From Candidatus Saccharimonadota bacterium (GTDB lineage: Bacteria; Patescibacteriota; Saccharimonadia; Saccharimonadales; Saccharimonadaceae), in NCBI GenBank assembly GCA_016866755.1, contig VGLK01000005.1, forward strand, positions 10,272 through 74,271: 64,000 bases of DNA. The letters run 5' to 3'. The translations under genes were made by a program, and so were the position numbers. Below are positions 26,737 to 48,386 of the stretch, in pieces (position 1 is the stretch's first letter; every line of letters begins with the position of its first letter). The notes under the pieces are model-generated. The model saw nothing but the letters and a program-made list of their open reading frames with translations, was not told the origin of the DNA and did no database searches.

Positions 26737-26810
26737 TCAGGCGGAAGCTTTCAAGATATTACAATCTAAGCTAAAGTAAAGCGAGCCTAAAATTAGGCGA
26801 TAGAAACACG

Positions 26811-26836
26811 TGGTTCGAATCCAGCCGCCGGAGCCA
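26811..26836 (+). pseudogene. displaced tRNA-Asn 3'-end fragment (T-arm half, acceptor, GCCA)
   Basis: TGGTTCGAATCCAGCCGCCGGAGCCA versus tRNA TGGTTCGAGCCCAGTCGCCGGAGCCA; no 5' half upstream. Confidence 0.8.
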
Positions 26837-27055: not shown

Positions 27056-27087
27056 CTCAAGTAAGAAAGTATATAATTAGAATCAAT

Positions 27088-27660: not shown

Positions 27661-27662
27661 GC

Positions 27663-28934: not shown

Positions 28935-28983
28935 ACCAAGGACAACTGTACCGCGATGGCTATGTAAGTCTAGCCCTAATTGA

Positions 28984-31324: not shown

Positions 31325-31356
31325 ATGTCCGTTATTATAGTGCAGTCAGAAACAGT

Positions 31357-33323: not shown

Positions 33324-33344
33324 ACATTAATTGTACCGCTACTA

Positions 33345-33374
33345 TCAACACTAATCAACACTAATCAACACTAA
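33345..33374. repeat. three perfect tandem 10-bp units (TCAACACTAA) 22 nt upstream of the HTH-methylase start
   Basis: Read directly: ACTA-TCAACACTAA-TCAACACTAA-TCAACACTAA-TTAATA. Confidence 0.9.
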
Positions 33375-33512
33375 TTAATATATCTTCAATAAAATTGGTA
33401 CTACATAGACACAATCTTTTCACAGCTAACAAGCGATTGCCTAATCAAAAGATACTGTTCTGTATACAAACTGGATGCTACTATTCAAGTAATACAGTGC
33501 ACATATAGTAAA

Positions 33513-33980
33513 TTAGTAGGATTTTTCCAAACAACTTACTTCACTTTTTGTTGCATAAGCAGCCCCGTCTCGAGATATAGTCACCAAACCTTCGAAGTAC
33601 TTAGTCTCTCCAGGTTTAAGCAATGTGTCCCAGGTGACATAATCAATACCTTGGTATTGGCCATCTGGGCTTTGTATGCGGATATTACATGCAGGATTTG
33701 CGTCTACGACGCCCGTATTAGTAACAGTGAAAGTCAATCTTCGCCGGGTGTCGTCAGCGAAGGTGTTGCCAACGACTTTTATTTTGTAGTCAGGCTTTGC
33801 TGCAGGTTCTCCGGCGTTATCTTGTGTTTGGTTAGTGATAGGTTCTTCGTAGGCGCTGTCCATACTGCTACCTAAGAATCCTGACAAGAAGGGTAAGAAC
33901 ATAAAGATAATTATCAAGATTCCCCACCATCTGGTATACCATTTCTTTTTGCTAGATTGTTTAACGGGCTGTTCCTGCAT
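33513..33980 (-). CDS. membrane-anchored protein, possibly Ig-like (DUF4352-like)
   Basis: N-terminal TM helix, beta-rich C-terminal part; weak family guess. Confidence 0.45.
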   Translation of the reverse strand: MQEQPVKQSSKKKWYTRWWGILIIIFMFLPFLSGFLGSSMDSAYEEPITNQTQDNAGEPAAKPDYKIKVVGNTFADDTRRRLTFTVTNTGVVDANPACNIRIQSPDGQYQGIDYVTWDTLLKPGETKYFEGLVTISRDGAAYATKSEVSCLEKSY

Positions 33981-34178
33981 ATGTGTTCTCCTTCGCCAAA
34001 GTAATGCCGCACTTCAGCGAAGAAGTCCATATAAATAAAAAGGACAGCCACGCTGGACTGTCTAGGACCCAAACAAGCAGTTATGCCTATTCTTTTTTAC
34101 GTAGCTGCCCATTTTACGGCACAACTACGCAAACGTTTGCGTTAACTAATTGTTTGAATCCTAGACAGTCTTATTATA

Positions 34179-34631
34179 TCAGCTATTATCCAAAGGAGAC
34201 TGGTGGTCGACAAAATCTCTGTGATTAGATATAAACTGTCTAAGCGCATCGTAGCCTGCCTCGGTTTTCAGGATGTCGGCTAGCTCTTCATACGCTCGGT
34301 GCGATAGTCGAAGACGTTTAATTTCATCCGTGTACACATTCTTAGGGTAGGGTCGATATCGAGTAGTGTTGTGACTCAACCAATATGCAATAGACGCATA
34401 CTGGTTGTTCGAAATATTCTCGAGTAGTTTTGACTCGACAAAGTCGGTAAGTTTCTCACGTCCCTTATCCTGGGCCTGTTCCGCGGAATGCTTGAAAACG
34501 ATATCTGCATTGCACCAACGATAATAGGTAGAGCGTGCAATACCGATCTTTTTGCACGCTCGCTCTACCAAAGGATTATCCTCAAGCTCCTTTAAGACGC
34601 GTGCTCGTTTACCTCTCCACTTTTTCTCCAT
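34179..34631 (-). CDS. small HTH protein (terminase-small-subunit-like or regulator)
   Basis: ACKKIGIARSTYYRWCNAD helix-turn-helix; overlaps the ParB-methylase 3' end. Confidence 0.5.
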   Translation of the reverse strand: MEKKWRGKRARVLKELEDNPLVERACKKIGIARSTYYRWCNADIVFKHSAEQAQDKGREKLTDFVESKLLENISNNQYASIAYWLSHNTTRYRPYPKNVYTDEIKRLRLSHRAYEELADILKTEAGYDALRQFISNHRDFVDHQSPLDNS

Positions 34632-35952
34632 CGAGCTTCACCCTTTTCTGACCAGTTAGATTTTCCCAGCGTTTCAGTGCAACTTCGGCATACACGGGAG
34701 ATTTCTCCATAATGTAGCAGCGTCGATTCAATTTGGTTGCTGCAATTAAAGTCGATCCGCTACCGCAAAAAGGCTCGACGACTAAATCATCACGCTTTGT
34801 CAGCACCTTGATATACGGAATGAGGATTGGTAGCGGTTTTGTCCCAAAAATAACGCCTTGGCCACTATTCTTTTCATCCTCAGCGTTATGTGTGATGAAA
34901 TCAGTCGGCTGATATTTCTTACCCTTAGCATGAGATTCCCATTGGGGTTTACCGGATATAGCGTAGATCGCCGTCTCATACTCTTCTTGTAGGCCGCCAA
35001 CTTCTTCATCGTGGTTATACTCGACAGTACCATTTGCGCCGACCATAGCAATGTCATATTTACTAAAGAACTTATACTTACTGGCAAAGTTTTGATGACG
35101 AGTGGGGACGTGCCAGACTATCATATTCTTTACCTTGAAGTGCTTTTCCATTTCGCCCCATATGGTACGGAGGTTTTTCCAGTTTTCATACACAATGATG
35201 CTGAAGTCTGGCTTGGCGTTATCAGCGACGTTTTTCATCCATAGTTCAGTAAAGTCATCGGGCAGAACGTCCGTTTCAAGATAGCGTCGGTTGCGCTTCG
35301 ACCCAAAACCCGTCACAGGTTTGCCTTGTCGCTTAGCGTGGAGGTAATCGAGAATATATGGAGGATCGGTCATGCACATATCGGCCTTCTGTCCGTTCAT
35401 GAGTTTGGTGAAATCCTCACTTATTGTCGAATCACCACACATGAGCCGACTTTCACCCAGTTGATACACGTCTCCCTTTTTCACTTCGACATTATGTATG
35501 TCTAGTTTCTCAAGTTCCTTTTTTAGATTAAAACTTTCTGGTGTATCATCGACTTCAAACACACTATCAAGATCCTCACTAGTGAATCCGATGTCGGCTA
35601 GGATTGCTTCATCGAATTCCTTTAGTAAATCAAGATCCCATTCGCCAAGATTTTTGTTTAGGCGAAGATTTAACTCTTTCTCTCGCTCAAGCTCTGGAAT
35701 GGTAACGTATACGACAGGTAGCTCAGTAAAACCAAGATCCTTAGCGACTTTGAGTCGAAAATGTCCTCCGATTACCACATTTTCGCGACCGGGCGCGTTG
35801 TTAGCTAGGATTGGATCGACTATTCCAAATCGGCCAATACTATCTTTAAGTTGTTCTATGGCATCTTCTGACCATTTTCGCGGATTGTAAGGCGCAGCGT
35901 TTAAATCAGTTATTCTTATAGTTTGTATTTTTAATGTGTTATTTTGCTTCAT
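34609..35952 (-). CDS. ParB-like nuclease domain fused to DNA methyltransferase
   Basis: N-terminal ParB/Srx-like region (LNAAPYNPRKW, GGHFRL), CMTDPPYIL and EPFCGSGSTLIAA; start set at ATG 35952, preceded by AGGAGG. Confidence 0.85.
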   Translation of the reverse strand: MKQNNTLKIQTIRITDLNAAPYNPRKWSEDAIEQLKDSIGRFGIVDPILANNAPGRENVVIGGHFRLKVAKDLGFTELPVVYVTIPELEREKELNLRLNKNLGEWDLDLLKEFDEAILADIGFTSEDLDSVFEVDDTPESFNLKKELEKLDIHNVEVKKGDVYQLGESRLMCGDSTISEDFTKLMNGQKADMCMTDPPYILDYLHAKRQGKPVTGFGSKRNRRYLETDVLPDDFTELWMKNVADNAKPDFSIIVYENWKNLRTIWGEMEKHFKVKNMIVWHVPTRHQNFASKYKFFSKYDIAMVGANGTVEYNHDEEVGGLQEEYETAIYAISGKPQWESHAKGKKYQPTDFITHNAEDEKNSGQGVIFGTKPLPILIPYIKVLTKRDDLVVEPFCGSGSTLIAATKLNRRCYIMEKSPVYAEVALKRWENLTGQKRVKLDGEKVER

Positions 35953-36124
35953 GGCAAAACCTCCTATGTGAGGCTGTCGTCGACTGGAATAAAAAGAGCG
36001 TTCCAGGAATCGATCGAACAGCTGTTTAATACTGTTGATCAACTCGTGAAACGCGATATATTGCGTGTTAACTGGTTACACACGGTGATTGATAATCTTA
36101 TTTAAGCATAAAAAATTTGATAAA

Positions 36125-36766
36125 TCAATTACTGGTCTTTCGCATACGTTGGAGCCTCTTATATATAGGTTCGCCATAGATTCTTTCTTCAAGCTTCTTC
36201 CAGCCTGTTCTTGGCAGGCTCTTTTTTGCGGCATAGCCCGTAAATTCTGCCCGTTTTACGAGTGCGGCGTAGCTAAGACTTGTTGCGGTTTGATGTTTTA
36301 ATACAACCAGATCTCTTGCTGTGCACGAACCTTTAACCACATCCATTTTATCAAGGTCTTCGTGGAACATGGATGTTGGGTAGATGAATTCGGCAGCAAA
36401 AACTTCAGCGCCAATTTCTTTTAATTCATCTTGGACTTGGGTGAGACAGAAAGCTCCCACGGAATCCCGATCCATGAGATGATGCTTCAGTTCATGCGCA
36501 AGAGTAAAAATATATGGCTCATCGGGCAGTCGTGCGATAAGAACTGCAGGTATCCCGCTAAGGTCGGGGAAGTAAACACCCCTCAGTTTCTTAAAAGCCT
36601 TACCGCCCATGCCTGCCATCGGCCATTGATCGATGCCTATTCCGTAATGTTTGTAGATTTTTCTAAATTCAGTACGTGATATGCGTGCGCCGCTAATGTT
36701 AAATAGCGCTCTTTGCTCGTGCGCCAGAGTCTCCATTTTCTTGTAGTAATCTGAACGCTCCGACAT
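36125..36766 (-). CDS. ImmA/IrrE-family zinc metalloprotease
   Basis: HExxH as LAHELKHHL; located directly downstream of the XRE repressor gene. Confidence 0.8.
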   Translation of the reverse strand: MSERSDYYKKMETLAHEQRALFNISGARISRTEFRKIYKHYGIGIDQWPMAGMGGKAFKKLRGVYFPDLSGIPAVLIARLPDEPYIFTLAHELKHHLMDRDSVGAFCLTQVQDELKEIGAEVFAAEFIYPTSMFHEDLDKMDVVKGSCTARDLVVLKHQTATSLSYAALVKRAEFTGYAAKKSLPRTGWKKLEERIYGEPIYKRLQRMRKTSN

Positions 36767-36777
36767 CTTAGGCTAAC

Positions 36778-37119
36778 CTACTTTTTTCTCAACTGACTTT
36801 GTGCATTTTTTATTTGTGCAAACTGAGTTAATGCCTCTATGTCATCTTTATGAAGACCTTGAGCTGCGCGCATCAGTCCCGCGAGGGGAGCGGGTGTATT
36901 TTCCTCCGGGAAGAAAGATGAAATTGGCTTACTAAAAAATTTCGCTAAATCATCGAGATCCTTGAGTTTTGGCTTGTATACGGCCTTTTCCCATCTAGAA
37001 ACGGTATTAGCTGCAACACCGAGTTTACTAGCTAAATCTTCTTGAGAGAGACCCTTGCCTCCGTTGTAAGAGGTACGGAATTCTTTGATTCTTTCGCCCA
37101 CATATTTTGATACTTCCAT
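36778..37119 (-). CDS. XRE-family HTH repressor
   Basis: LSQEDLASKLGVAANTVSRWEKAV. Confidence 0.85.
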   Translation of the reverse strand: MEVSKYVGERIKEFRTSYNGGKGLSQEDLASKLGVAANTVSRWEKAVYKPKLKDLDDLAKFFSKPISSFFPEENTPAPLAGLMRAAQGLHKDDIEALTQFAQIKNAQSQLRKK

Positions 37120-37138
37120 GATACTCCATTCCTTATAA

Positions 37139-37190
37139 AGGATATTATATTCCTATTTTTGTTGACATGCAAGTTAAATAGGAATATCCT
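37139..37190. promoter_or_regulatory. divergent control region: two AGGA..TCCT palindromic boxes bracketing a TTGACA-17-TATCCT promoter
   Basis: AGGATATTATATTCCT (37139-37154), TTGACA (37162-37167), AGGAATATCCT (37180-37190, overlapping the -10). Confidence 0.5.
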
Positions 37191-37286
37191 ATAAATGTAG
37201 CAGTTACTCAACACAAAAAGGATTGCTTAACTGACGGAGTGATGAGGTGTATCACTTTTAAAATCCTAACAGAAAGGGGATATGGT

Positions 37287-37535
37287 ATGACACAACGTGA
37301 TTATCACGTAACCCGGCGACCAGACGGTCAATGGCAATATAAACTTCCACATGCACAACGTGCATCGGGTATAGCAAGTACGCAGGCTAAAGCTGAAATA
37401 GCAGCTAAACAGTCGGCTCGTAATGGTGGTGCCGGTGGTGAAATTACAATTCACCGACCAAACGGTCAAATACGTGATCGCGACACAATTTCACCCGCAA
37501 ATGATCCTAATCCACCCAAAGATGCGAGGCATTGA
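37287..37535 (+). CDS. DUF2188-like small protein
   Basis: HVTRRPDGQWQYK...ASTQAKAEIAAKQSARNGG..ITIHRPNGQIRDRDT pattern; GGGGA upstream of ATG 37287. Confidence 0.6.
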   Translation: MTQRDYHVTRRPDGQWQYKLPHAQRASGIASTQAKAEIAAKQSARNGGAGGEITIHRPNGQIRDRDTISPANDPNPPKDARH

Positions 37536-37536
37536 T

Positions 37537-38463
37537 ATGGGTGGATTTGTTATTAGCAACAAGCGTCGCATCCGGTCTCTGGTAAGTAATTTGCCAGAGA
37601 CCCTGAAGGGCAAGAGTATTGTACTGGCGGTTGATTTGTCGTCAAACCTCGCAAAGGCGCGACGCATAGGTTTCAGCGAGAATCCGACAGTGGGCGACAC
37701 TCTGCTTCCAAATGTCATTGGTCCTGCAACGCGTCTCAATACCTATGGCCGTGACATTATCCGTCGCGACAAAGAGAAAGAGACGCTGTATCGTGAACAT
37801 GCTTGGACTCATCAAGAGTGGGCAGGACGGGGTGAAACACGGACCGTAACTACTTATGTATCGATTCCTTACAAGCGCTTCCCGCGCGATCATGTCGAAG
37901 GATTTGAGATTGAGTTGTCGATTCGTGAGAGCAATGGAAAATTGATTATTGCTACGCTAGACCCAATTACGTACGATGACAAAAGCGCAGCTTTACTGAC
38001 TGCAGCAATTAACGTATATCTTGAAGTATTTGGATATGTGGAACTTTTTGATCAAAAACTCAGTCCGATACCGAAGCCAATGACCGTACGTCGCCTGAAC
38101 TGGGATGTATTGCCTAAAGGTGAAAAAATTACCAAAGAGAAGCTGAAAAATATTCTGTCGAAGTCGAAGCGAATTCGACCCGTAGAATGGAATCGTCAAG
38201 AAAAAATCAGTAGTTATAACCCTACCGAAATCGCCATCGGTACCGCAGGGTTTTCAGGGTATATAATTTACGTATTTCCTGAAAAGAAACTGGCCGTGCT
38301 AGAGAGTCTAAAGTACGGCAATGCAAGTTACATACTCGATGACGGTAGGTGGGAGGATCTGTCAAAATTAACTAAGCAACAGTTGCTATCGGCAAAACTG
38401 GTAAAAGCCCGTGAAGTACATTATGGTGCATGGGGTACGCGCATCGATAGGATACTGAAGTAG
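37537..38463 (+). CDS. hypothetical protein (308 aa)
   Basis: ATG 1 nt after the upstream TGA; no recognisable motif. Confidence 0.6.
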   Translation: MGGFVISNKRRIRSLVSNLPETLKGKSIVLAVDLSSNLAKARRIGFSENPTVGDTLLPNVIGPATRLNTYGRDIIRRDKEKETLYREHAWTHQEWAGRGETRTVTTYVSIPYKRFPRDHVEGFEIELSIRESNGKLIIATLDPITYDDKSAALLTAAINVYLEVFGYVELFDQKLSPIPKPMTVRRLNWDVLPKGEKITKEKLKNILSKSKRIRPVEWNRQEKISSYNPTEIAIGTAGFSGYIIYVFPEKKLAVLESLKYGNASYILDDGRWEDLSKLTKQQLLSAKLVKAREVHYGAWGTRIDRILK

Positions 38464-38464
38464 C

Positions 38465-38968
38465 GTGAGTCGTCGCACGCCCTGGTTTGAACACGTTTTA
38501 AGCGAGTATTCGCGGAGTACTGTGGTTGCAGTCTCCGCGATACTTGCCGTATTGCTGATGCTGTCGCTGGTCCAATTCGTGAAGGGCGGCGCTTTTGTTT
38601 GGAATGATATTGCGCTAATAGATCAACCAGATATTCTTAGCAGGACGTTCTATAGCGCATTAACGTTTGTATCAATAGGGGCTATTCTTTACCAACTACA
38701 ATTCTATAGGTTCTTGTCGTGGATATTCGGCTCTGACCGTAGCAGCTACAAAGAAGCAAAGCGCATCATATGGGTTGGTCTGATATTAATCATGTATTGG
38801 TATATCGTGCCGGTTATCGTTGATTTGTTGAATTCTACCGTGTCATTCGCATACAATGTTTCACTACTTGTATTGTATTTGTCACCTGTTCTTTTTATAG
38901 GCGTGGCAGGCTTATTTATTGTAGCCACTGTTTACCGAGTAAAATTAAAGAATGTACAAACACCTTAA
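38465..38968 (+). CDS. polytopic membrane protein (4-5 TM)
   Basis: GTG start 1 nt after the upstream stop; hydrophobic spans. Confidence 0.55.
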   Translation: MSRRTPWFEHVLSEYSRSTVVAVSAILAVLLMLSLVQFVKGGAFVWNDIALIDQPDILSRTFYSALTFVSIGAILYQLQFYRFLSWIFGSDRSSYKEAKRIIWVGLILIMYWYIVPVIVDLLNSTVSFAYNVSLLVLYLSPVLFIGVAGLFIVATVYRVKLKNVQTP

Positions 38969-39584
38969 AGATCACCGGTACTATAAAGAACTTTATGATC
39001 GACTGACCGTTGAGTCTGCTCGTCGCGGTATGAGCCATTACGATACCTTTTACTCTGAATTCGAAAGTAAGCTTCCTGTAAGTGAGAAGGTCGACAAGCC
39101 CGGTAGTGCTTTCTTGCTGAATGTTTTCTATATGGAAACTGTTGGTAGCGAACTCCTTGATCGTTATGAAAACCGAGATAGTAAAATCCAGGAATGGATC
39201 AATAGGGATCGGGCAAAAGATGAACAGATATCGTCAGCACGACTAGCAGAAGAACCTTCGTGTCAACACTGTGACAAACAGGGGCTCCGGATTATCGACA
39301 AATCGCTGATGCATCGAGGTGATGCATATGAGATTGATGATCCCGAAGAGGTTCTCTTTATGTTGCGGTGTCCTCACTGCGACAAGAACAGCGCTTTTTG
39401 GGAAGATGGCAAGGAGCGTGTAGATTTCAGCTACAGACCTGCTGGTACTACTGTATTTTACGGTACTAAAGTTCGTGAGCAGCCAGACGTAGACCTGAAC
39501 GCTCTTTGTGCTCACACGCCAGCAAACTCAACCTTCCGTGCTGACTGCATAGAAAGATATAGGCGTCAGTATTATGGCAACTAA
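38952..39584 (+). CDS. hypothetical protein with CxxC...CxxC zinc ribbon
   Basis: CQHCDK ... CPHCDK; overlaps the upstream gene by 17 nt. Confidence 0.6.
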   Translation: MYKHLKDHRYYKELYDRLTVESARRGMSHYDTFYSEFESKLPVSEKVDKPGSAFLLNVFYMETVGSELLDRYENRDSKIQEWINRDRAKDEQISSARLAEEPSCQHCDKQGLRIIDKSLMHRGDAYEIDDPEEVLFMLRCPHCDKNSAFWEDGKERVDFSYRPAGTTVFYGTKVREQPDVDLNALCAHTPANSTFRADCIERYRRQYYGN

Positions 39585-39605
39585 ACTTATGATATATTTA
39601 TACTA

Positions 39606-40223
39606 ATGCCATTCCCTGCCACAACGAATGCCGACTACTTCACCTTTAATGTTCACAGCTCCCTTCTGCTTGTGGGGCAGACTGGCTCTGGCAAAACGGA
39701 GCTGGTGCAGCGATACATCAAACGACTAGAGCGAGCGTTTACGCCTGAGCAAATGCAGTATATTCTATATGACCTTAAGCAGGTTGGGATTGGCACCAAG
39801 GACGGAGGCGGTGCAAAAGCAGAATACCTTTATACACCGGTACGTACTGGTAAACCAGAATACGTGGATTACCTTGAAGAGCTAGCCGACCTAGCTCAAG
39901 CGAGAGCTGAGGGCAAGGAGCCAAAGGACAAGCTCCTATTTATCTATATCGAGGAGTGCGACCTCGCTGTCCAATATCCAGAGAGATTTCATGCTGCGGT
40001 AATGACAATAAACAAGTACGCTAGAATGGCTAATATGAAGCTAGTCTTCTCTACATCTAGCCCAAGGCGAGACGTCATCCCTCCAGATTTCCGCGATAGC
40101 TTCGAGCTAATACTGAGCGGGCCACTTGCAGGCAAGTTTGATGAAGAGACGCTAGGCGTATCCGACACACAGAGTATAATGTTTCCGTATGAATTTATAG
40201 TCAAAGAGGTCAAAGCAGGCTGA
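39606..40223 (+). CDS. minimal FtsK/SpoIIIE-like P-loop ATPase
   Basis: Walker A GQTGSGKT, Walker B LLFIYIEECD, then MKLVFSTSSPRRDVIPPDFRDSFELIL resembling the FtsK motor RAxGIHLIxATQRP..VI block; only 205 aa, no TM region. Confidence 0.6.
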   Translation: MPFPATTNADYFTFNVHSSLLLVGQTGSGKTELVQRYIKRLERAFTPEQMQYILYDLKQVGIGTKDGGGAKAEYLYTPVRTGKPEYVDYLEELADLAQARAEGKEPKDKLLFIYIEECDLAVQYPERFHAAVMTINKYARMANMKLVFSTSSPRRDVIPPDFRDSFELILSGPLAGKFDEETLGVSDTQSIMFPYEFIVKEVKAG

Positions 40224-40224
40224 T

Positions 40225-40857
40225 ATGGCATATATCACCGACCAACTTCGCTGGCAAGAAACAATGAACACCGTCACAGTAGACTGTTCGCTAGATATTG
40301 CTATACATCCTGCAGAGTCTGATACGGTGCTACTAATCATTCCTGGTGTAGACGGCTCAGTGAATGGCTATCAAGACAAGTACATACGCATAGCCGAGCA
40401 GGCACAAGACAGGTATGGTATAGCGGCTGTGCGTATTGCTAACCCATTCATCAGTTCATTCCACTGGGAGAGTAATCCTCGCCGCATACTGGACTACATA
40501 GCTAGTAACACTGACACTATCGCGGGAGGTGGTGAAGCAATTCGCATTAAGATAATGGCTCACTCTGCTGGGGCATCAATAATAACGAAGATAGCCCACG
40601 AGTACGACAATATAACCGACCTGCTGCTTGTTAATCCAGCCGAGAAGCTTGACGGTGATGCTATACGCAGCGGACTTAAGAAGACTGACGCCAAGGTAAC
40701 AGTAATATTTGGCGAGAAAGACCCCTCTGTGAGCTTCTCAGAGGCTCTACGAGGCGATGGACGCAGGGTTGTAGTACTTGAGGGTGCTGACCACAATTTC
40801 TCTGGTGAAAACCTACAAGCATTTATAGAACTACCCGAAAGGTACTTGCTATCATGA
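40225..40857 (+). CDS. alpha/beta hydrolase
   Basis: Nucleophile elbow MAHSAGAS; C-terminal EGADHNF His. Confidence 0.6.
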   Translation: MAYITDQLRWQETMNTVTVDCSLDIAIHPAESDTVLLIIPGVDGSVNGYQDKYIRIAEQAQDRYGIAAVRIANPFISSFHWESNPRRILDYIASNTDTIAGGGEAIRIKIMAHSAGASIITKIAHEYDNITDLLLVNPAEKLDGDAIRSGLKKTDAKVTVIFGEKDPSVSFSEALRGDGRRVVVLEGADHNFSGENLQAFIELPERYLLS

Positions 40858-41279
40858 ACATCTATCTAGACATCGACGGCGTACTACTTGCAAATGAGGA
40901 GAACTTGGCGATCGGTGCGGCTGAGTTTATCAAATACGCCGCAGATAATTTCGATGTATATTGGCTCACAACCCACTGCATGGATGGTACGACCGATCAC
41001 GCAATAGAATATCTGCAGCGCGGAAGCGATGAAGACTTGCGGCCATGGTTAGAAAAGTTTAAACCTGTCACGTGGAGCTTAAAAAAGACGGAAGCGATCG
41101 ATTTCACAAAACCATTTATGTGGTTCGATGACGATTGCTTTAGCGGTGAGAAGATTGATCTTCACGAGCACGGAGTGTTCAATTCATGGATTGAGGTTAA
41201 TCTAGCTAAATATCCAGATCAAATGGTGCATGAGCTAAAGTTGCTAAAGTCTATCGCCGAGGAAAAGGCCACAATATGA
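40854..41279 (+). CDS. HAD-superfamily phosphatase-like protein
   Basis: Motif I IYLDIDGVLL, motif IV-like WFDDD; ATGA coupling on both sides. Confidence 0.6.
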   Translation: MNIYLDIDGVLLANEENLAIGAAEFIKYAADNFDVYWLTTHCMDGTTDHAIEYLQRGSDEDLRPWLEKFKPVTWSLKKTEAIDFTKPFMWFDDDCFSGEKIDLHEHGVFNSWIEVNLAKYPDQMVHELKLLKSIAEEKATI

Positions 41280-42010
41280 GTACTATTGATGTTGAGTTTG
41301 ATTTTCAGCAAGAGGCTGGTTTTGATAGAGCCGGCGTCCAGCGAGATTCGGATAAATACAGTCCAACACTACAGGAGTATCATCGAATCCTGTGGAGTAA
41401 ACCGCTACCAAATAGAAAAATGTTCGAGCTAACAAAAATAAGCAATAACCGCCTGTACCATAAGTCAGAATTAGGTGAGTTCTATTTATCAAGCGATAGA
41501 GCAATCGCTACCTTTTCGTCATGGGTAAAAATGAAACCCATAATCGATCAGATTTCAGCGAAAGAGCTGGATGATTTTATTCGGCTTACTGACACTATTG
41601 GCGGTATTGTGATTTGGCCGAGCAATAAAATAAATGGCTCCCAGACTATCAATGCCGCCAGGGGCTTTAACCGGCAGATAGTTGATCGCCTAGATCTGAC
41701 TATTGAGTGTATCCGGCGCTTTTATTTAGGTGAAGCTAGCCCGCTATATGAAACCTTCGTGAGGTATAGTGACTTCTTTCAACTTTTCGATGATTTTAAG
41801 GGCTATATCGACTTCTTTTTGCTACAAGATTACGTGACAGAAGATTATATGAGCGTAAAAATAGCAAAGCCTTTCGACGACTTCCGCTCGACACCGATAC
41901 CGAAAACGGTCGACGAATACCTGTCGTATATGAATATGACGAGTGAGCTGATAAAGCTAAGGAATCAAAGAATTAAAAATAACTCAACTCAAGTAAAACA
42001 ACTATCGTAG
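41276..42010 (+). CDS. hypothetical protein (244 aa)
   Basis: ATGA-coupled last gene of the operon; no recognisable motif. Confidence 0.6.
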   Translation: MSTIDVEFDFQQEAGFDRAGVQRDSDKYSPTLQEYHRILWSKPLPNRKMFELTKISNNRLYHKSELGEFYLSSDRAIATFSSWVKMKPIIDQISAKELDDFIRLTDTIGGIVIWPSNKINGSQTINAARGFNRQIVDRLDLTIECIRRFYLGEASPLYETFVRYSDFFQLFDDFKGYIDFFLLQDYVTEDYMSVKIAKPFDDFRSTPIPKTVDEYLSYMNMTSELIKLRNQRIKNNSTQVKQLS

Positions 42011-42598
42011 CATTAATCTTGATAGTCTGAAGGTTCTTTTTTCATTTCTTAAATGACAGAACGCAACAAGATAAGCAATGCCATGCTCTTTTGTGAAGTG
42101 GGATGGCGTAATTTCACGATAGGTAACTTTTTCATTAATATCTGTATATGTTATCTTTATGCGTGATTTCATAGCTATAGCACGTTCGATAGATTGCACG
42201 GTAGAGCTAGGCGTAGCCCTGGATCCATAGTTGCTGTCATGGTTGAATGATTCGCCAAAAATTTTTCGGTTATCTTTTTTCTCGTGACAGTATTTACACA
42301 GCGTCTGCAAGTTTTCCAGATTATTCGTGCCGCCCTGCGATAGCTGAACAATATGATCAACCGTAAGGTTATCTTTTCTCCTACATGAACGACAAGTATA
42401 ACTGTCACGAGCGAGTACCGCTTTTCGGATACGATCCCAGCTACTTCCAGAGGCAATTCCTTTACCTTGAATCTCACTGTCCCACTCGTTTGTCTCTCGC
42501 GGTGTAGTAACCTTTGTGGAATGCGAAGAATCTTTAGACTTTTTGTCAAAAATTGAGGAAATTATTCCAATACCTACGAGTAACGCTAACCACTCCAT
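42002..42598 (-). CDS. membrane-anchored HNH endonuclease with C-terminal WYL-like domain
   Basis: N-terminal TM helix; CRSCRRKDNLTVDHIVQLSQGGTNNLENLQTLCKYCHEKK; IKITYTD...REITPSHF...IAYLVAFCHLRNEKRTFRLSRL. Confidence 0.75.
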   Translation of the reverse strand: MEWLALLVGIGIISSIFDKKSKDSSHSTKVTTPRETNEWDSEIQGKGIASGSSWDRIRKAVLARDSYTCRSCRRKDNLTVDHIVQLSQGGTNNLENLQTLCKYCHEKKDNRKIFGESFNHDSNYGSRATPSSTVQSIERAIAMKSRIKITYTDINEKVTYREITPSHFTKEHGIAYLVAFCHLRNEKRTFRLSRLMLR

Positions 42599-42608
42599 GT
42601 AGTGCTAA

Positions 42609-43079
42609 TTATACAACGGTCTCGTGGTTAAAGACTAACTTCGGATTATCCTTCCGTAATATCATGTACGGCCCATTCGGAATTCCTCGCCCAATTATCT
42701 TTCCTTCGTGAATCTGCTTGCGAATTGTTCGCACGCTTATATTCAGCTTCGATGCGAGAATCGTATCAGGAATAGATTTCTCGTGTCGATAATCGCCGCA
42801 TAAAGATCCGGGTATCTTCCGCTTATTGATTGCATTTTGGCAATTTGAGCATTTAAAGCCCCATTTATCGAACCAGCCAGGTGTATCATATACGGATTTG
42901 AAACATAGCCCACATTGGCGGCCTTCGCCGTCCATGGCAAACCCTTTGGGGGAATCTTTGAGTTTGGCAAAGCGTGCTTTTTCTTGTTGATCTATCTCAA
43001 TTAGTAAGCTAAAGTAATCAACTAATCTACGGCGCTCGTCATTCGTAAATTCACGTCCTAATTGCTCATTATCGTTCAT
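42609..43079 (-). CDS. zinc-ribbon plus excisionase-type HTH protein (candidate recombination directionality factor)
   Basis: CGLC...CSNC; LASKLNISVRTIRKQIHEGKI; ATG 43079 preferred over GTG 43130. Confidence 0.5.
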   Translation of the reverse strand: MNDNEQLGREFTNDERRRLVDYFSLLIEIDQQEKARFAKLKDSPKGFAMDGEGRQCGLCFKSVYDTPGWFDKWGFKCSNCQNAINKRKIPGSLCGDYRHEKSIPDTILASKLNISVRTIRKQIHEGKIIGRGIPNGPYMILRKDNPKLVFNHETVV

Positions 43080-43170
43080 AGCTACATCTTCTCGTGGTTC
43101 ATTATTGCTACGATCCAATTCTATACACACCGTGTCCGATTTGTAGCGTTCTAACCCTGTTGAAAGGTTC

Positions 43171-43255
43171 GTGACCTGTAAGCGGAGCCAAGAGTATATA
43201 TGTGACAGGAAGTCCAGTAAGCATTCACGCTACAGGACTTCTTTTCGTATTAGGT
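43171..43255 (+). repeat. R-family repeat copy R1 (core GTGACCTGTAAGCGGAGCCAAG plus degenerate hairpin)
   Basis: Matches R2-R5 cores; hairpin GAAGTCC/GGACTTC followed by a T-run. Confidence 0.8.
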
Positions 43256-43267
43256 ATAATAAGTTGT

Positions 43268-43816
43268 ATGACAAAACCTATGAATATCGCATCAATCGAA
43301 AAGGCGACAAATAAATCTTGGGATCAATGGGTAAGAGAACTCGATAAGAGTGGTGCACGAGAGTTGTCTCATGCCGACTTAGCGCACAAGCTCAATGACG
43401 AGCTTGAGGGTGAACTTGAAAGTCATGGATGGTGGGCGCAGGGTATTACAGTGGCGTATGAGCAGCATATAGGTAAGCGCGTCCCAGGTCAGTTAGCCAA
43501 TGGACTATTTGAACTAGCTGTATCGAAAACAGCGGCGACTTCACGTAATACATTATTTCCACAACTTGTTGAATGGTTTGAAAATCAAAGTGAATTCAAT
43601 GGATCCGCGCCCTTGAAGTCCCGTAGCAGTGAGACTCCCAAGCGCAGCACATGGAGGTGTGACTTTGCTGACGGAAGTAAATTCTCATCAACTGTTGAGG
43701 AAAATAAAGAAAAATCTAAACTTATTCTTTCACACACCGCTGTTCCTACTAAACAAGAAGCCGATGATTGGAAGGATTTTTGGCGCAATACTGCTGAGCA
43801 ATTGATTAAACAATAG
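43268..43816 (+). CDS. DUF4287-like protein
   Basis: IEKATNKSWDQWV...GWWAQGITVAYEQHIGKR; ATG 43268 preferred because GTG 43202 lies inside repeat R1. Confidence 0.5.
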   Translation: MTKPMNIASIEKATNKSWDQWVRELDKSGARELSHADLAHKLNDELEGELESHGWWAQGITVAYEQHIGKRVPGQLANGLFELAVSKTAATSRNTLFPQLVEWFENQSEFNGSAPLKSRSSETPKRSTWRCDFADGSKFSSTVEENKEKSKLILSHTAVPTKQEADDWKDFWRNTAEQLIKQ

Positions 43817-43818
43817 TC

Positions 43819-43889
43819 TTTGATCTGTAAGCGGAGCCAAGACAAGATATTTGAACAGAAGTCCAGTAAGTATACACGCTGGACTTTTT
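43819..43889 (+). repeat. R-family repeat copy R2 with terminator hairpin (43859-43889)
   Basis: TGATCTGTAAGCGGAGCCAAGACAAGATATTTGAACAGAAGTCCAG..CTGGACTTTTT. Confidence 0.85.
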
Positions 43890-43905
43890 GATATAATAAT
43901 CAGTA

Positions 43906-44295
43906 ATGAAAACTAATATTCCCGTCAATTGTGGCAACTCGCCTCGTTCACTTCTTGCGATAGAAATTGCAGTCAATCTGGCTTCTAATAAATACGATAA
44001 ACTCGAACCTCTGCTGGCTGAATATTTTACATGGTGCATTGCAGGTAGTAATGAAAAAGTACCGAAATCAAAACTAAAATCATATATGGATAAGGTGACT
44101 CAATCAAAAATTCACATAGATAAGTATGATATTTTAACTTCAATTTCACATGGCAAATACGCAGCGGTAAGTAGTTGCGCGTATGCGTCGAATGGGTATA
44201 TATTCAATTCTCATGACTTGTATGAATTTACAGGTGCTGGTGCCTCGGCAAAGCTTCTTAAAGTAACGTCATACATAGTTGGTAGTAAACACTAG
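43906..44295 (+). CDS. hypothetical protein (129 aa)
   Basis: ORF bounded by R2 and R3; a decayed paralogue lies at 47204-47494. Confidence 0.6.
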   Translation: MKTNIPVNCGNSPRSLLAIEIAVNLASNKYDKLEPLLAEYFTWCIAGSNEKVPKSKLKSYMDKVTQSKIHIDKYDILTSISHGKYAAVSSCAYASNGYIFNSHDLYEFTGAGASAKLLKVTSYIVGSKH

Positions 44296-44368
44296 TCCGT
44301 GACCTGTAAGCGGAGCCAAGACAAGATATTTGAGCAGAAGTCCAGTAAGTATTTACGCTGGACTTTTT
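44296..44368 (+). repeat. R-family repeat copy R3 with terminator hairpin (44338-44368)
   Basis: TCCGTGACCTGTAAGCGGAGCCAAGACAAGATATTTGAGCAGAAGTCCAG..CTGGACTTTTT. Confidence 0.85.
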
Positions 44369-44419
44369 GTTATAACAGAAATAAATAACTGACCATAAAA
44401 CAACTGTGGAGAATCTATC

Positions 44420-44791
44420 GTGAATATGAAATTAGAACTCATCCCCGTTCCTGTAACCGATGCTGATCGAGCTAAGGCATTCTATGTTGACCAAGTTAGT
44501 TTTGTGGCTGATCACGATATTCCTGTTAGTGACGGGTTGCGGTTTATACAGCTCACCCCACCAGGCTCAGCTTGCTCAATAGTACTTGGTGAAGGCATTA
44601 GTGAAATGGCACCTGGGTCGCAAAAAGGCTTACAGATGGTTGTAGATAGCGCTCAAGAAGCGCACGATGAGCTTAAGCAACGTGGTGTTGAAGTTAGTGA
44701 TTTAGATGTTCAAGAATGGGGCACTTTTGTATACTTTAGCGACCCAGACGGGAATACCTGGGCTTTGCAGCAAATGCCAGATAAGAATTAG
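44420..44791 (+). CDS. glyoxalase/bleomycin-resistance (VOC) family protein
   Basis: 123 aa; LIPVPVTDADRAKAFY ... FSDPDGNTWALQQ. Confidence 0.75.
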   Translation: MNMKLELIPVPVTDADRAKAFYVDQVSFVADHDIPVSDGLRFIQLTPPGSACSIVLGEGISEMAPGSQKGLQMVVDSAQEAHDELKQRGVEVSDLDVQEWGTFVYFSDPDGNTWALQQMPDKN

Positions 44792-44809
44792 TAGTTATCA
44801 ATTAATAAC

Positions 44810-44866
44810 TCCGTGACCTGTAAGCGGAGCCAAGGAAAAAGATTCACAATTTAGTGGATCTTTTTC
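44810..44866 (+). repeat. R-family repeat copy R4 (core plus a different hairpin)
   Basis: TCCGTGACCTGTAAGCGGAGCCAAG, then GAAAAAGATTCAC/GTGGATCTTTTTC. Confidence 0.8.
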
Positions 44867-45286
44867 TATTGCGTGTTGACCGCTATTTCGTAGCAATGTA
44901 TATGAAAAAGGTTATGATCGTAGCTAGAGAAGCTGTTACGGAAATCATAGTTTTAGAAGAACTGAATATTGCATAAATGGGTGAACCTACTTTGGTGCTG
45001 TATGTTTTATTAGCATATTTTTGTTGATAAAATAATGTTATCCCAGCCATCTTGTGTCATGTCTGCGAAGAACAGCGGTCGAAAACCAAGCCTTAAGTGT
45101 GCTGACGGGAATCAGCCACCATAGAAGATTCCACCCGCCACCAAATAATACAATTACTAAAGCTGGTATTAATAAAATATAACTAAGTAGATTAAATAGC
45201 CAATATCTTTTCAAGAATACAACGAAATGTGGAGCATTGATGAAAAACCCACACTGAGGTGGGTATTTCGTAAACTTGCATGTTAT

Positions 45287-47071
45287 CTAATATTCTCGCA
45301 TCCAGTGCCAGTGAGTCCAAAGGCTATTATTGCGGGTCCAGCACGGAGGGCTAAGCCATGCGTACGCTTGGTTGTAGGTGCCATTTGGGCAGGCAATCAT
45401 GCTTTCAAACAAATCCTTTCCCATGTTGGCACCGCCATTCACGGACGGGTTGTATCCACCGTGAAACGTCAGTTTGTTTGGATGATTATAGGCCATAATT
45501 GCTTGCTCAATAACACGATGCTCTGGGTGATCGTACAAGCCGCATAGGTAGTCGGATTTAGTGGTTGGGCACTTCGGATCCCTAGTGTTGTCCCAATAAT
45601 TACCACTTGCTATATAGTTTTCGGTACTCACGCCGTAATCAACTTGTCGTGCCATGTTGATTGCCTGTGTAGCTTCAGCGGCTGTAAGTGAATTGCTGCC
45701 ATAGTCAAAAACCAGACGGGCTGAATTTGCTCCCTTGTAAAGGCGAAATCCGCCGGCCTGCATGCCGTAATCAGAGACAGTGTGGTAGTTATTGAGGAAC
45801 GCATGCCACGAGCTGACGCGCCGAGCCTTACATTGGCTGCTTCCTTTACCGCCGTTCCTATCGCAGTATGCCGAGTATTCGCCTTGCGTCGTCAGGATAA
45901 ATACTGGATATTCTGACGCGCCGATTGCCGCCCATGCGGCTATTTCGTCGTCAGGGTGGGCAAGTATAAAGTATGAAACGCCATTCGCTAGGCGATTTTT
46001 TATTTGAGAGCCACGCATAATTAAGCTGGTTTGTCGTGCAATATCGCCGTTCACTCGATTTATACCACCAACAATCGTTGCCTTAGATGCGCCTAGGCGT
46101 TGAATCTCGGTCATAACGTTGTCTGGAATATTTTGGGATACGTACAGTAATGCGCCGGGTGTCGGGATTGAGCCGATTAAGATGCCATCAGCGTACGCCG
46201 TGCCATTAGCTATAAATACTTGGTCTGTGCCGTTAGGAAATATCTGTTGAGATAGTGAAACAGCGGTGGCGTATCGATCGGCTCCTCCTCGTCGCGTAAT
46301 GGTTGCACCGGTGGAATTTGCAATAGCTTGGGCGGCCGTTTGACTCACCACAGACACATCGCCAATCACAATAACTTGCTGAGGCTTTAGTCGTTTAAGC
46401 TCGGCCGTAACCACTGCCGGAATACTATCTTTGTTGATGTAGAGCAAAGGGCCTTTTGCGCCTTGTTGAGTTCCAGCAATGGCATCGGCGTAGGCGTCTC
46501 CATTGGATACGTAGACTACGGGTGATGTTTGCGGGTAGTCGGCTTTTGATACGCTCACGGCCGTATCGTAACGACTCTGTCCGGCGAGGCGAGTTAGGCT
46601 TGAGGTGGCTGGTATGCGTGCTTTAACTTGGTTTGCTACGTTTGAATTTACTACTACGTCGCCGCCAACTATTACAACTTTTTGCGGACGCAGACGTCCG
46701 AGCTCCGCGGCTACGTTAGTGGGTAGAGACGAAGTGTTGGTATATAAAATCGGACCCGATGTTTTCATGGCCCCGGCGATAATGCCGTCAGCATAGGCGC
46801 TATGATTGACAATGTACGCCACCGGAGTGCCGGCAGCGTAGTATTTGCGGGATACAGAGACGGACGTATCGATCGCACTTGGTCCACTGAGGCGCTCGAC
46901 TGCTGGATTGACGCGCTGGTGTCGTAAGGTGGTTTTAGGTGAAATGCTCTGAGGATTCACTGCTGCCTGTTCTGCTGATGCATTGCTACTGAAAGGCGTG
47001 ATCGGTAGTATAGTCAAGCAAATCAGCAGGCTGATTTTTGCGCGTAATAAATTATTGTGGCGTAAAGTCAC
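45287..47071 (-). CDS. secreted protein: signal peptide, 3x cell-wall-binding repeat 2 (CWB2), PIG-L/LmbE-family deacetylase
   Basis: Three RL(S/A)G..R(Y)(D)T(A/S)V..S...gap...ADG/ADA...GP(I/L)LY...VV(I)VGG repeats; FILAHPDDE and DHPEHR motifs. Confidence 0.75.
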   Translation of the reverse strand: MTLRHNNLLRAKISLLICLTILPITPFSSNASAEQAAVNPQSISPKTTLRHQRVNPAVERLSGPSAIDTSVSVSRKYYAAGTPVAYIVNHSAYADGIIAGAMKTSGPILYTNTSSLPTNVAAELGRLRPQKVVIVGGDVVVNSNVANQVKARIPATSSLTRLAGQSRYDTAVSVSKADYPQTSPVVYVSNGDAYADAIAGTQQGAKGPLLYINKDSIPAVVTAELKRLKPQQVIVIGDVSVVSQTAAQAIANSTGATITRRGGADRYATAVSLSQQIFPNGTDQVFIANGTAYADGILIGSIPTPGALLYVSQNIPDNVMTEIQRLGASKATIVGGINRVNGDIARQTSLIMRGSQIKNRLANGVSYFILAHPDDEIAAWAAIGASEYPVFILTTQGEYSAYCDRNGGKGSSQCKARRVSSWHAFLNNYHTVSDYGMQAGGFRLYKGANSARLVFDYGSNSLTAAEATQAINMARQVDYGVSTENYIASGNYWDNTRDPKCPTTKSDYLCGLYDHPEHRVIEQAIMAYNHPNKLTFHGGYNPSVNGGANMGKDLFESMIACPNGTYNQAYAWLSPPCWTRNNSLWTHWHWMREY

Positions 47072-47203
47072 AGTTTGAGTCTCCTAAACTTTATATTTAG
47101 CATACTGTAACATTTTATTTACTATAAATCAATAAAGTTTCTATGTATTCCCTTGGCGGTTTCACTGCAAATGGGGCTGGACTTTTTGGTATATAAAATA
47201 GTA

Positions 47204-47494
47204 ATGAAATCCCATATTCCCGGCAATCGCGGCAACTCACCTCGTTCGCTCCTTGCGATAGAATCGAGAAATTTCTTGCTAAAGATTTTCGTGGGGTGCA
47301 GCGGGTAGCGATAGGGTTATATTAAATTCGATATTCTGACGTCGATTTCTCACGGCAAATACACAGCCGTCAGCAGCCGTGCGTATATGTCGAATGGGGC
47401 AATCTTAAACTCTTACGACCTGTACAAATTTACAAGTACTGATAGTCAAGCAAAGCTTCGCAAAATAACATCGTACGTAGTTGATACGCTATAA
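47204..47494 (+). pseudogene. decayed paralogue of 43906..44295
   Basis: The first ~85 nt and last ~170 nt align with 43906-44295, together with the upstream CTGGACTTTTTGGTATATAAAATAGTAATG. There is an internal deletion and an in-frame TAG after 34 codons. Confidence 0.75.
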
Positions 47495-47501
47495 TTAATA
47501 C

Positions 47502-48287
47502 ATGAAACAATTATGGCAACTAGGTAATATACTTTCACTAATTTTTGCGCTTGTCGCTAATTTTTTGGTAGGTGCGCAAATACTAGGCCTCCCATCAATT
47601 AATCAGATCTCCGACAAGTACGCTACGCTTCTAACGCCAGCTGGCTATGCCTTTTCGATATGGTCGCTGATATACGTATTTTTAATTGTCTTTGTTATTT
47701 ACCAGGCTAGGGATATAGTAAAGCCACGCCAAGAAAATAATCTGCCCCGCTTAGTCGGTCCGTTTTTTATTATCGCCAGTATATGTAACGGCTTGTGGAC
47801 ATATGTATTTGTTAATGAAATGGTAGGCCTGTCGGTTTTCGTTCTCTTGCTCTTAGCTGGGTCGCTTTATGCTTTATTGTGGCGTCTTAAAATTGCTATC
47901 ACCGATCCACCGATAAAAACCATTTTATGCGTTTGGTGGCCGCTAATGATTTATACGGGTTGGGTGACGGTGGCTAGTTTAGTAAACGCTGCTAGTTGGT
48001 TGGAATCGTTAAATATAACGCTCACCCCAACAATAGCTAGTATTGTGTTAATTGTATTCGCCATTATCCTTCTAATTCTGCTTATTAAACGCAACGTACG
48101 CGAACTGCTACTTGCCTGCATATGGGGCATTGTGGCGATAGGTGTTCAACAAATGCAGTTGTTGGGTAGCCAAAGAGTAGTTATTACTGCATTTACAGTG
48201 GCTGGTCTACTCCTGATTGCGGTAGGCGTTCATGCCTATATAAACCGGAAGTCAAACCTATTGGCAAGGCTCAGTAAAGGTCGGTAA
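47502..48287 (+). CDS. TspO/MBR-like tryptophan-rich membrane protein (long form)
   Basis: LTPAGYAFSIWSLIY motif; 7-8 hydrophobic spans. Confidence 0.5.
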   Translation: MKQLWQLGNILSLIFALVANFLVGAQILGLPSINQISDKYATLLTPAGYAFSIWSLIYVFLIVFVIYQARDIVKPRQENNLPRLVGPFFIIASICNGLWTYVFVNEMVGLSVFVLLLLAGSLYALLWRLKIAITDPPIKTILCVWWPLMIYTGWVTVASLVNAASWLESLNITLTPTIASIVLIVFAIILLILLIKRNVRELLLACIWGIVAIGVQQMQLLGSQRVVITAFTVAGLLLIAVGVHAYINRKSNLLARLSKGR

Positions 48288-48357
48288 AGCAAAATTTTTG
48301 CATAAATAATACTGTAGCTATTACGAAAAATACAAGTTATATAAATAAGCATTTAGA

Positions 48358-48386
48358 GTCCGCGACCTGTAAACGGTAGCCAAGAC
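48358..48386 (+). repeat. R-family repeat copy R5 (diverged core only)
   Basis: GTCCGCGACCTGTAAACGGTAGCCAAGACA. Confidence 0.6.

Follow-up and report, generated by a model that had tools for sequence, protein, structure and literature searches.

Background and comparison with described systems

In the staphylococcal cassette chromosome (SCC) islands at rlmH/orfX, a large serine recombinase (LSR) of the Ccr type inserts its element at the 3' end of a conserved gene, which stays active. Direct repeats bound the elements, and tandem composites occur that include recombinase-less pseudo-SCC units. In SSV1-type archaeal viruses the attachment site attP lies within the tyrosine integrase gene, and integration at a tRNA gene splits the open reading frame (ORF) into two non-functional parts. 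Here we describe an island of ~25 kb that starts at the tRNA-Asn gene of a Saccharibacteria genome (contig VGLK01000005.1), within an analysed stretch of 64,000 nt that is called the window throughout. The island contains six units (23603-48382), each closed by a short motif, here named R, or by a remnant, and only the second unit carries a recombinase. It is probably an accretion array built by LSRs at tRNA-Asn, in which R would be the conserved left half-site together with the crossover core, GAGCCA, of LSR attachment sites.

The closest published systems are the ssrA islands of Dehalococcoides and the SCCmec composite islands, and literature searches found no paper describing such a system in Saccharibacteria. 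The ssrA islands carry a CcrB-like serine recombinase, DsiB, and lie in tandem behind a single-copy small-RNA gene; 15 of the 31 islands lack an integration module, and cis-mobilisation by accretion was proposed for them (McMurdie et al. 2011, PMC3146451). Our locus resembles them in its tandem units, all of them delimited by copies of a small-RNA gene's 3' end, in an LSR gene that adjoins attL on the reverse strand, and in the presence of units without a recombinase. It differs in its target, which is tRNA-Asn and not transfer-messenger RNA (tmRNA), in its repeat, a diverged 30-nt mimic where the ssrA islands have a plain 20-bp copy of the target, and in its units, which go down to ~0.5-kb single genes with their own terminator and predicted promoter. 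Furthermore, no second, small serine recombinase (DsiA/CcrA) was seen in the element, and in one clade the site lies within the recombinase gene.

With SCC and SCCmec the locus shares tandem units behind the end of a conserved gene, recombinase-less ones among them, and the best NCBIfam match of the window LSR is CcrB (E 2.7e-38). However, the match reaches 132 bits against an equivalog cut-off of 900, so the protein is not an orthologue; there is also one recombinase gene in place of the ccrAB pair, and the phylum and the target are different and the units far smaller.

Islands formed by repeated integration at tRNA genes have been described in the streamlined genome of Prochlorococcus as tycheposons, of which 910 of 937 elements use tyrosine recombinases and which carry replication modules (Hackl et al., bioRxiv 10.1101/2020.12.28.424599). 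The island studied here shares with them scattered partial tRNAs, the inward displacement of older elements by newer ones, and "plug-in" cargo units, but single-gene cassettes bounded by a conserved half-site were not described there. As in SSV1, an attachment site lies within a recombinase gene and integration at a tRNA gene alters the ORF; unlike SSV1, only a C-terminal tail is exchanged, the enzyme is of the serine type and the host is a bacterium.

The earlier note on this DNA had also compared its repeats with the attC sites of integrons. As in integrons, the array is oriented and composed mostly of single-gene cassettes at one fixed location, and a conserved site lies behind each gene and often overlaps the stop codon; exchange falls at the 3' edge of the site, and cassettes are common to distant genomes. 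Unlike integrons, there is no IntI-type tyrosine recombinase by the array (PF00589 search, 21 genomes) and no attC-type imperfect palindrome, the hairpins after the site being variable in sequence and terminator-like. The cassettes have promoter-like sequences of their own, as judged by inspection, in place of dependence on Pc, and the anchor is a tRNA end. The analogy is thus valid for function, as a cassette array with exchange at the site, and fails for IntI, the attC dyad and promoterless cassettes: the system is integron-like in function without being an integron.

The repeat is composed of a conserved motif and a separate arm

The assembly that was scanned comprises 848 kb in 7 contigs. 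The core CCGTGACCTGTAAGCGGAGCCAAG was found on the plus strand at 43169, 43818, 44297 and 44811 (R1 to R4), with 1, 3, 0 and 0 mismatches, respectively, and no match is expected in shuffled sequence. A diverged fifth copy, R5 (48357-48382), was recovered as the fifth member of repeat family D5, and its core is disrupted by an additional T (GGTAGCCA). The motif therefore comprises ~30 nt terminating in GAGCCA, in four good copies and a decayed one between 43161 and 48382, and the coordinates that the earlier note gave for five copies were accurate to within 3 nt. Also borne out was the likeness of R2 and R3, which are 91% identical across 90 nt reaching into the hairpin AAGTCCAG...CTGGACTTTTT; the identity of R1 over the same span is 67%. 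Folding predicted a strong hairpin and then a U-run behind R1 to R4 (z -2.2 to -5.1) and no hairpin behind R5 (z +0.3).

The copies follow gene ends closely. The core of R2 begins 1 nt past the stop of ORF 43202-43816, that of R3 immediately past the stop of a 129-aa ORF and that of R4 18 nt past a glyoxalase stop, and R5 begins ~70 nt past the stop of a 261-aa ORF. R1 has no preceding plus-strand gene and borders a minus-strand gene instead; hence the claim that every copy lies behind a different plus-strand gene is true for R2 to R5 only. Regarding the labels proposed for these genes, glyoxalase was confirmed (PF00903, E 1.4e-9), DUF4287 gave a sub-threshold match (E 0.022), and TspO was unsupported in Pfam and NCBIfam searches.

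Two structural claims had to be revised. The repeat had been said to begin like a tRNA acceptor end, when the motif actually ends like a tRNA 3' end, from the T-loop to CCA; and what had been taken for a single ~80-nt repeat consists of two separable modules, a ~30-nt left arm and a terminator arm. R (GGTTCGTGACCTGTAAGCGGAGCCA) is identical to the 3' end of tRNA-Asn at 19 of 25 positions, including all of the final eight bases (CGGAGCCA), and the last 25 nt of the tRNA gene (GGTTCGAGCCCAGTCGCCGGAGCCA) are the natural left half-site. The 10-mer CGGAGCCAAG is indeed common to the repeat core and a tRNA-Asn remnant at 26812-26838.

Across the junctions collected from other genomes (see below), conservation reaches ~30 nt leftwards from the exchange point and takes in positions -21 to -30, which were outside the search pattern; on the right the information content is ~0 beyond +8. 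The right arms are diverse in sequence, and 81 of 98 fold strongly (39 of 98 for shuffles) and 79 of 98 contain a T-run. Adjacent motifs are spaced by a median of 1.1 kb (33 of 57 at 1.3 kb or less), and a gene of 60 codons or more stops no further than 45 nt from the motif at 45 of 131 junctions, the distance mostly being 7 nt or less. The 30-nt arm belongs to the unit at its left, and the terminator/promoter arm to the unit at its right.

By inspection only, extended -10-like sequences were seen behind the terminators: TAGGTATAAT after R1, TGATATAAT at 43887-43895 and TGTTATAAC after R3. A scan for consensus promoters and terminators was uninformative, since the hairpin loops exceed 8 nt and the hairpins were missed. 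The -10-like boxes of cassettes 1 and 2, the units that follow R1 and R2, lie just 7-10 nt before the ATG (43244-43271 and 43887-43908), which suggests that these genes could be expressed from leaderless or near-leaderless mRNAs. A small stem within R was considered as a functional RNA hairpin and rejected, as it is not maintained in a GGGG variant of the motif.

The motif is confined to one locus in its own genome and occurs in many genera

In its own genome, a search for the 17-mer CTGTAAGCGGAGCCAAG that tolerated up to 2 mismatches gave four matches, all at this locus, and when 6 mismatches were allowed the only extra matches were R5 and tRNA-Asn itself. A repetitive extragenic palindromic (REP)-like or otherwise dispersed terminator repeat, which the earlier note had set against its cassette idea, is ruled out, since every copy lies within one island. 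Two further sources were rejected for the motif: the 3' end of tmRNA, which sits on a different contig, and a missed tRNA gene, as the 41 tRNAs of the genome already cover all amino acids. No RNA family in Rfam matched the motif at gathering or permissive thresholds.

A survey of the family covered 401 genomes from 95 sampled genera, and gave ~14 exact and 18 one-mismatch matches in ~30 of the 95 genera, often clustered on one strand. Chance alone would give about 2 such matches, and a control with the reversed pattern gave noise at the 2-mismatch level only. Additional scans, which took a single genome for each species (23 loci) and also metagenomes (76 loci), showed that the motif-bearing records are almost exclusively metagenome-assembled genomes of Saccharibacteria (TM7). 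In the first 21 array loci tRNA-Asn is the sole tRNA, and it adjoins a recombinase in 7 further regions.

The GGGG variant (GTGACCTGTATGGGGAGCCA; loci L035, L037, L039, L040, L042 and L048) is regularly found behind a set of stress genes, encoding an Hsp20-like small heat-shock protein, a ClpB/ClpC-like ATPase and a 165-aa protein. The 40 nt upstream of this variant are conserved and encode an LSR tail, VTEQS(H/Q)GWQDTR followed by the stop codon.

Upstream and downstream flanks re-assort at GAGCCA

The relatives and metagenomes provided 145 unique junctions, with 78 upstream and 98 downstream flank types. More than one downstream partner was found for 24 upstream types, and more than one upstream partner for 12 downstream types; the R1-type upstream end alone was joined to 17 different downstream arms. 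In relatives, the 3' end of tRNA-Asn precedes the arms that in the window follow R1, R2/R3 and the junction of units 1 and 2. The tRNA end and R carry the same downstream arms and are therefore interchangeable left partners.

The point of the switch was located by a linkage test. The variable positions from -32 to -7 agree in 83-99% of the junction pairs with a common upstream flank, and are at background in those with a common downstream flank; from +1 on the pattern is reversed (0.94 vs 0.59). GAGCCA is invariant across the junctions and the switch between flanks falls inside it. The dinucleotide after GAGCCA was ruled out as the crossover, because the bases at +1 and +2 are linked to the downstream flank. 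Exchange is thus confined to the invariant six bases, within which a 2-bp staggered cut is not locatable from sequence.

BLAST blocks shared with other genomes end at the same points, namely 43190-43193 (more than 20 loci), 43833 and 44318-44320. Cassettes 1 and 2 recur as one block, at 93% identity, in two further genera (L036/G211 and L037/G224), and the block ends exactly at R3. Cassette 2 alone is found in L053/G071 behind a different upstream cassette, with 87% identity from GGAGCCAAG to GAGCCA; there, the left site of the 129-aa cassette is decayed. Cassette content, which by the earlier note should vary between strains in a cassette system, varies strongly between genomes and exactly at the motif.

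Organisation of the island

The features of the island, in order of position, are:

23528-23602, plus strand: tRNA-Asn(GTT), the anchor of the island (ARAGORN and Rfam)
23603-26838, plus strand: unit 1, 3.2 kb, without recombinase; ArsR-type regulator, 94-aa ORF, P-type ATPase and zinc-ribbon protein (Pfam)
26839-43190, plus strand: unit 2, a 16.4-kb recombinase-bearing element with two DNA methylases among its cargo and R1 as its right end
26839-27050: left arm of unit 2, a conserved non-coding module of ~210 nt
27663-28934, minus strand: LSR of 423 aa, apparently intact, oriented towards tRNA-Asn
42609-43190, minus strand: gene with zinc ribbon and excisionase-type helix-turn-helix (HTH), annotated ATG at 43080 (weak HTH_17 and "excise" matches)
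43161-43190, plus strand: R1, a ~30-nt left arm with the invariant core GAGCCA at 43185-43190; right end of unit 2
43191-43839, plus strand: cassette 1 (unit 3); hairpin 43207-43243, promoter-like sequence given above, ORF 43202/43269-43816, R2 at 43810-43839
43840-44318, plus strand: cassette 2 (unit 4); terminator hairpin, extended -10 given above, 129-aa ORF 43906-44295, R3 at 44289-44318
44319-44832, plus strand: cassette 3 (unit 5); terminator hairpin, glyoxalase-family ORF 44420-44791, R4 at 44803-44832
44833-48382, plus strand: unit 6, composite and decayed, opening with a 14-bp terminator hairpin and closing with R5
45287-47071, minus strand: CWB2 cell-wall-binding protein of 594 aa, in unit 6
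47176-47490: remnant of a cassette-2-type arm and pseudogene copy of the 129-aa gene, in unit 6 (repeat families D2, D4 and D5)
47502-48287, plus strand: membrane ORF of 261 aa, in unit 6

Unit 1 terminates in a 25-nt half-site resembling tRNA-Asn (26812-26836). This remnant has 3 mismatches to the resident tRNA-Asn but none to the 3' end of tRNA-Asn in genomes of another genus, g9 (G290 and G278). It matches the tRNA of the other genus and not the resident one, which points to unit 1 having been imported from another genus. Unit 1 is also 84-86% identical to units adjoining tRNA-Asn in two other genomes (G088 and G362).

The ~210-nt left arm (GCAAGCAGAGAAAA...AGTTCCTAGACCTG..., with hairpins) follows both tRNA-Asn (23603-23820) and the remnant (26839-27050), and recurs with 70-85% identity after tRNA-Asn or R in many genomes. 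The cargo behind it differs and may be an ATPase, an ABC transporter or an LSR element. It has no match in Rfam and may act in regulation, for instance as a promoter, or serve LSRs of the CcrB-like clade as right half-site.

Other observations concern the remaining parts of the island. A 198-aa protein with HNH nuclease and WYL domains is encoded at 42002-42598 on the minus strand, between DUF6994 and the HTH/zinc-ribbon gene. In unit 6, the region 47157-47490 contains the 3' part of a cassette-2-type arm (CTGGACTTTTTGGTATATAA) and then a frame-broken paralogue of the 129-aa gene, with 73-84% identity to 43878-44284, which runs into the 261-aa ORF with R missing between the two; it is an older cassette copy that has lost its site. 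Synteny with two genomes of the same genus gave no right border for the island, the flanking gene being absent in both. The array neighbourhoods share no recurrent gene other than LSRs, the HTH/zinc-ribbon gene, Hsp20 and ClpB.

Large serine recombinases are associated with the arrays

The window holds a single Resolvase-domain gene, the LSR of unit 2, which has Resolvase, Recombinase and Zn_ribbon_recom domains and an N-terminal YARKSSESDERQ motif. Its stop lies 825 nt from the left junction, inside the element and next to one of its ends. The earlier note had regarded it as a distant neighbour of the repeats, 15 kb away, a picture that did not stand, as in relatives recombinases of the same class sit at tRNA-Asn. 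Orthologues with 60-89% identity were found in 20 other genomes of the family. In four of the relatives (G278, G088, G117 and G362), an LSR 70-84% identical to that of the window lies 1-6 kb from tRNA-Asn on the opposite strand, behind the conserved left arm, and the element ends in an R-type motif after another 10-25 kb. In another four (G116, G332, G201 and G071), LSRs of other clades, with 26-33% identity, abut tRNA-Asn or an R motif. All eight relatives that were inspected thus have LSRs beside tRNA-Asn on the strand opposite to it.

Orthologues with at least 60% identity co-occur with the motif (14/21 against 49/380, odds ratio 13.5, p 7e-8). Serine recombinases are numerous in array-bearing genomes. 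A PF00589 search of the 21 array-bearing genomes gave one Xer-like gene in each (E ~1e-42 to 1e-46), far from the array, and a few additional matches that also lie away from arrays. That the sole tyrosine recombinase is Xer-like and located elsewhere argues against integrases of the integron or phage tyrosine type.

A short contig of genome G065 (C27, 6.4 kb; L018/L074) contains, within ~2.3 kb, a minimal arrangement of an R motif, a truncated HTH/zinc-ribbon gene and, immediately behind this gene, a 435-aa LSR with 70% identity to that of the window, which suggests that these three form the core module of the element. No series of tRNA-Gln remnants was found beside a paralogous LSR on contig 1 of the genome studied here.

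The site lies inside recombinase genes

In G116 and G332 the LSR ORF traverses the junction and ends across tRNA-Asn, with a serine before the junction and WLRQLGSNQRPNR and the stop codon after it. The last 13 codons are antisense to tRNA-Asn and the stop is in the anticodon loop. Similar ORFs of G071 and several metagenome contigs traverse R, continuing past the junction as WLPIQVTN or WLRLQVTE. The peptide W-L-R-L-Q-V-T (TGG CTC ...) is encoded by the reverse complement of the motif, and is the C-terminal tail in one LSR clade. The left arm is a half-site and recombinase codons at once, which accounts for its one-sided conservation. Longer conserved stretches upstream of "primary" copies were considered as accessory sites and turned out to be LSR tails instead.

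At R1 the same frame, W-L-R-L-Q-V-T-N-L-S-T-G-L-E-R-Y-K-S-D-T-V-C..., enters the HTH/zinc-ribbon gene (42609-43080) without a stop, the stop-to-stop frame being 42609-43229 on the minus strand. The 37 codons between R1 and the annotated ATG are conserved as protein in 19 unique homologues, and at locus L066 a 536-aa LSR body is fused in frame to the HTH/zinc-ribbon gene, giving 735 aa in total. The product of this gene may act as a C-terminal domain that can be detached, or as a directionality factor.

Two more LSR genes of the same genome overlap tRNAs. A 580-aa LSR ORF on contig C4 (32262-34004, minus strand) covers the whole tRNA-Pro gene, and a 589-aa LSR ORF on contig C1 (2224-3993, minus strand) runs 41 nt into tRNA-Glu. 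The C-terminal residues of both are antisense to the tRNA, on the opposite strand. A site inside the recombinase gene therefore seems to be a general design of the LSR elements of this organism, with several tRNAs in use.

Decayed LSR 3' ends can be recognised in a few right arms (L109, L130 and L155/G019), and G019 has no Resolvase match although its L155 right arm is of this kind. Such an origin for all right arms was rejected, as the mean alignment score barely exceeds that of shuffles.

Discussion

We propose that LSRs of Saccharibacteria integrate at the extreme 3' end of tRNA-Asn, and that the enzyme would join the ends of a circular element to a tRNA-Asn/x junction, x being the arm downstream, with strands exchanged within GAGCCA. 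The tRNA gene stays intact because exchange falls in its last six bases. Since R mimics the tRNA-Asn end, with the eight bases by the exchange point identical, an R/x junction could serve again as target, and the re-use of such junctions would make units accrete downstream of the tRNA. Each unit comprises a variable right arm, usually a terminator hairpin and then a promoter, followed by cargo and R. In one LSR clade the recombinase gene extends across the site, and its codons after the crossover are the reverse complement of R or, in the integrated state, of the tRNA. Cassettes 1 to 3, of 0.5-0.65 kb and without a recombinase, would need only R, and an adjacent LSR element using an alternative, more distant R would carry them out and in by cis-mobilisation. 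Most likely, in the manner suggested for ssrA islands without a recombinase and for pseudo-SCC elements, LSR elements carry along and re-sort the recombinase-less cassettes. The sequences show the structure and location of the site, the re-assortment at GAGCCA, the equivalence of the tRNA end and R, the association with LSRs and the coding overlap; that an LSR catalyses the exchange, which clade would do so and that cassettes still move are inferred from them. The earlier suggestion of att scars left by serial insertion of very small elements stands in part: the copies are remnants of recombination sites in an island that serial insertion at tRNA-Asn has built.

Several observations weigh against an LSR-built array. 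Serine integrase sites are normally quasi-palindromic, yet the right side of R has no conserved sequence, and inspection revealed no dyad linking the left arm with the right arms. Textbook LSRs do not take attL or attR as target, and repeated insertion at R/x would need a relaxed choice of partner. The clade of the window LSR does not read through the site, and the right arms of cassettes 1 to 3 (D1/D8 arms) showed no significant similarity to LSR 3' ends. Finally, G211, G224 and G019 contain arrays and gave no Resolvase-domain match, so at least some arrays are currently immobile.

Some of these observations would suit a different explanation, in which each R marks the right end left behind by an LSR element that was once complete and later lost its recombinase part. 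Small cassettes would never move as units, and the variety of junctions would reflect complete elements integrating and excising around static genes. The decayed LSR 3' ends among the right arms, the decay of sites such as R5 and, in L053, the one at the left of the 129-aa cassette, and the persistence of arrays in LSR-free genomes all agree with this explanation. It is nevertheless unlikely, given that the left boundaries of cassettes are exact and not ragged, most of them without an LSR relic, that units without a recombinase end in well-conserved R sites, and that one cassette lies behind different upstream cassettes and before four downstream arms in different genera at 87-93% identity. 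The one-sided site, the single-gene units, gene stops at a fixed distance from the site and arrays in genomes without an LSR could also be expected of a dedicated, integron-like recombinase of another type acting on R, with LSR elements merely sharing the tRNA-Asn hot spot. Such a system is very improbable, as array neighbourhoods share no candidate gene for it, R is the 3' coding end of LSR genes, and LSR elements start and stop exactly at GAGCCA.

The position of R between stop codon and terminator means that it is transcribed, and together with a weak 4-5-bp stem and the likeness to a tRNA 3' end this would fit a tRNA-like RNA element, a 3'-untranslated-region/terminator module spread by homologous recombination. 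We give this little credence, because the motif is unmatched in Rfam, the stem shows no compensatory change in the GGGG variant (by inspection), exchanges always fall at the 3' edge of the 30-nt identity and never spread through it, and the motif is restricted to the tRNA-Asn island and unused at other genes. Least probable of all is that the housekeeping Xer-type tyrosine recombinase moves the modules, as in integrative mobile elements exploiting Xer (IMEX) or in pdif modules. Each genome has exactly one tyrosine recombinase, so that the enzyme is always at hand, LSR-free genomes included, but R has no two inverted binding sites flanking a 6-8-nt spacer as in dif, its copies are all direct repeats without alternation, the site is a tRNA end, and the Xer-like gene is never near the arrays.

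Returning to the LSR-built array, a stronger form of it would have the C-terminal tail of the LSR swapped on integration and excision as a switch of direction or activity, and the recombinase-less cassettes as genuine substrates that pass between genera. Depending on the partner, the swapped tail would be a peptide of 10-30 aa, the antisense tRNA-Asn peptide, or the ~200-aa zinc-ribbon/excisionase-HTH domain. This form we consider rather doubtful.

The window is informative in showing three clean single-gene cassettes side by side with an LSR element that is still intact and a tRNA-like remnant of imported origin. Saccharibacteria and other bacteria of the candidate phyla radiation are epibionts with tiny genomes, whose acquisition of accessory genes is poorly known. 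The array represents a defined and widespread route of gene gain, by which single genes with stress, metal, envelope and unknown functions are stacked behind tRNA-Asn and shared among genera at a six-base exchange point. Should the recombinases prove active on these sites, they would provide a host-adapted gene-insertion tool for Saccharibacteria, which are hard to manipulate, and a natural case of an LSR accepting a very asymmetric site, and the overlap of site and recombinase gene would offer a testable idea on the control of direction.

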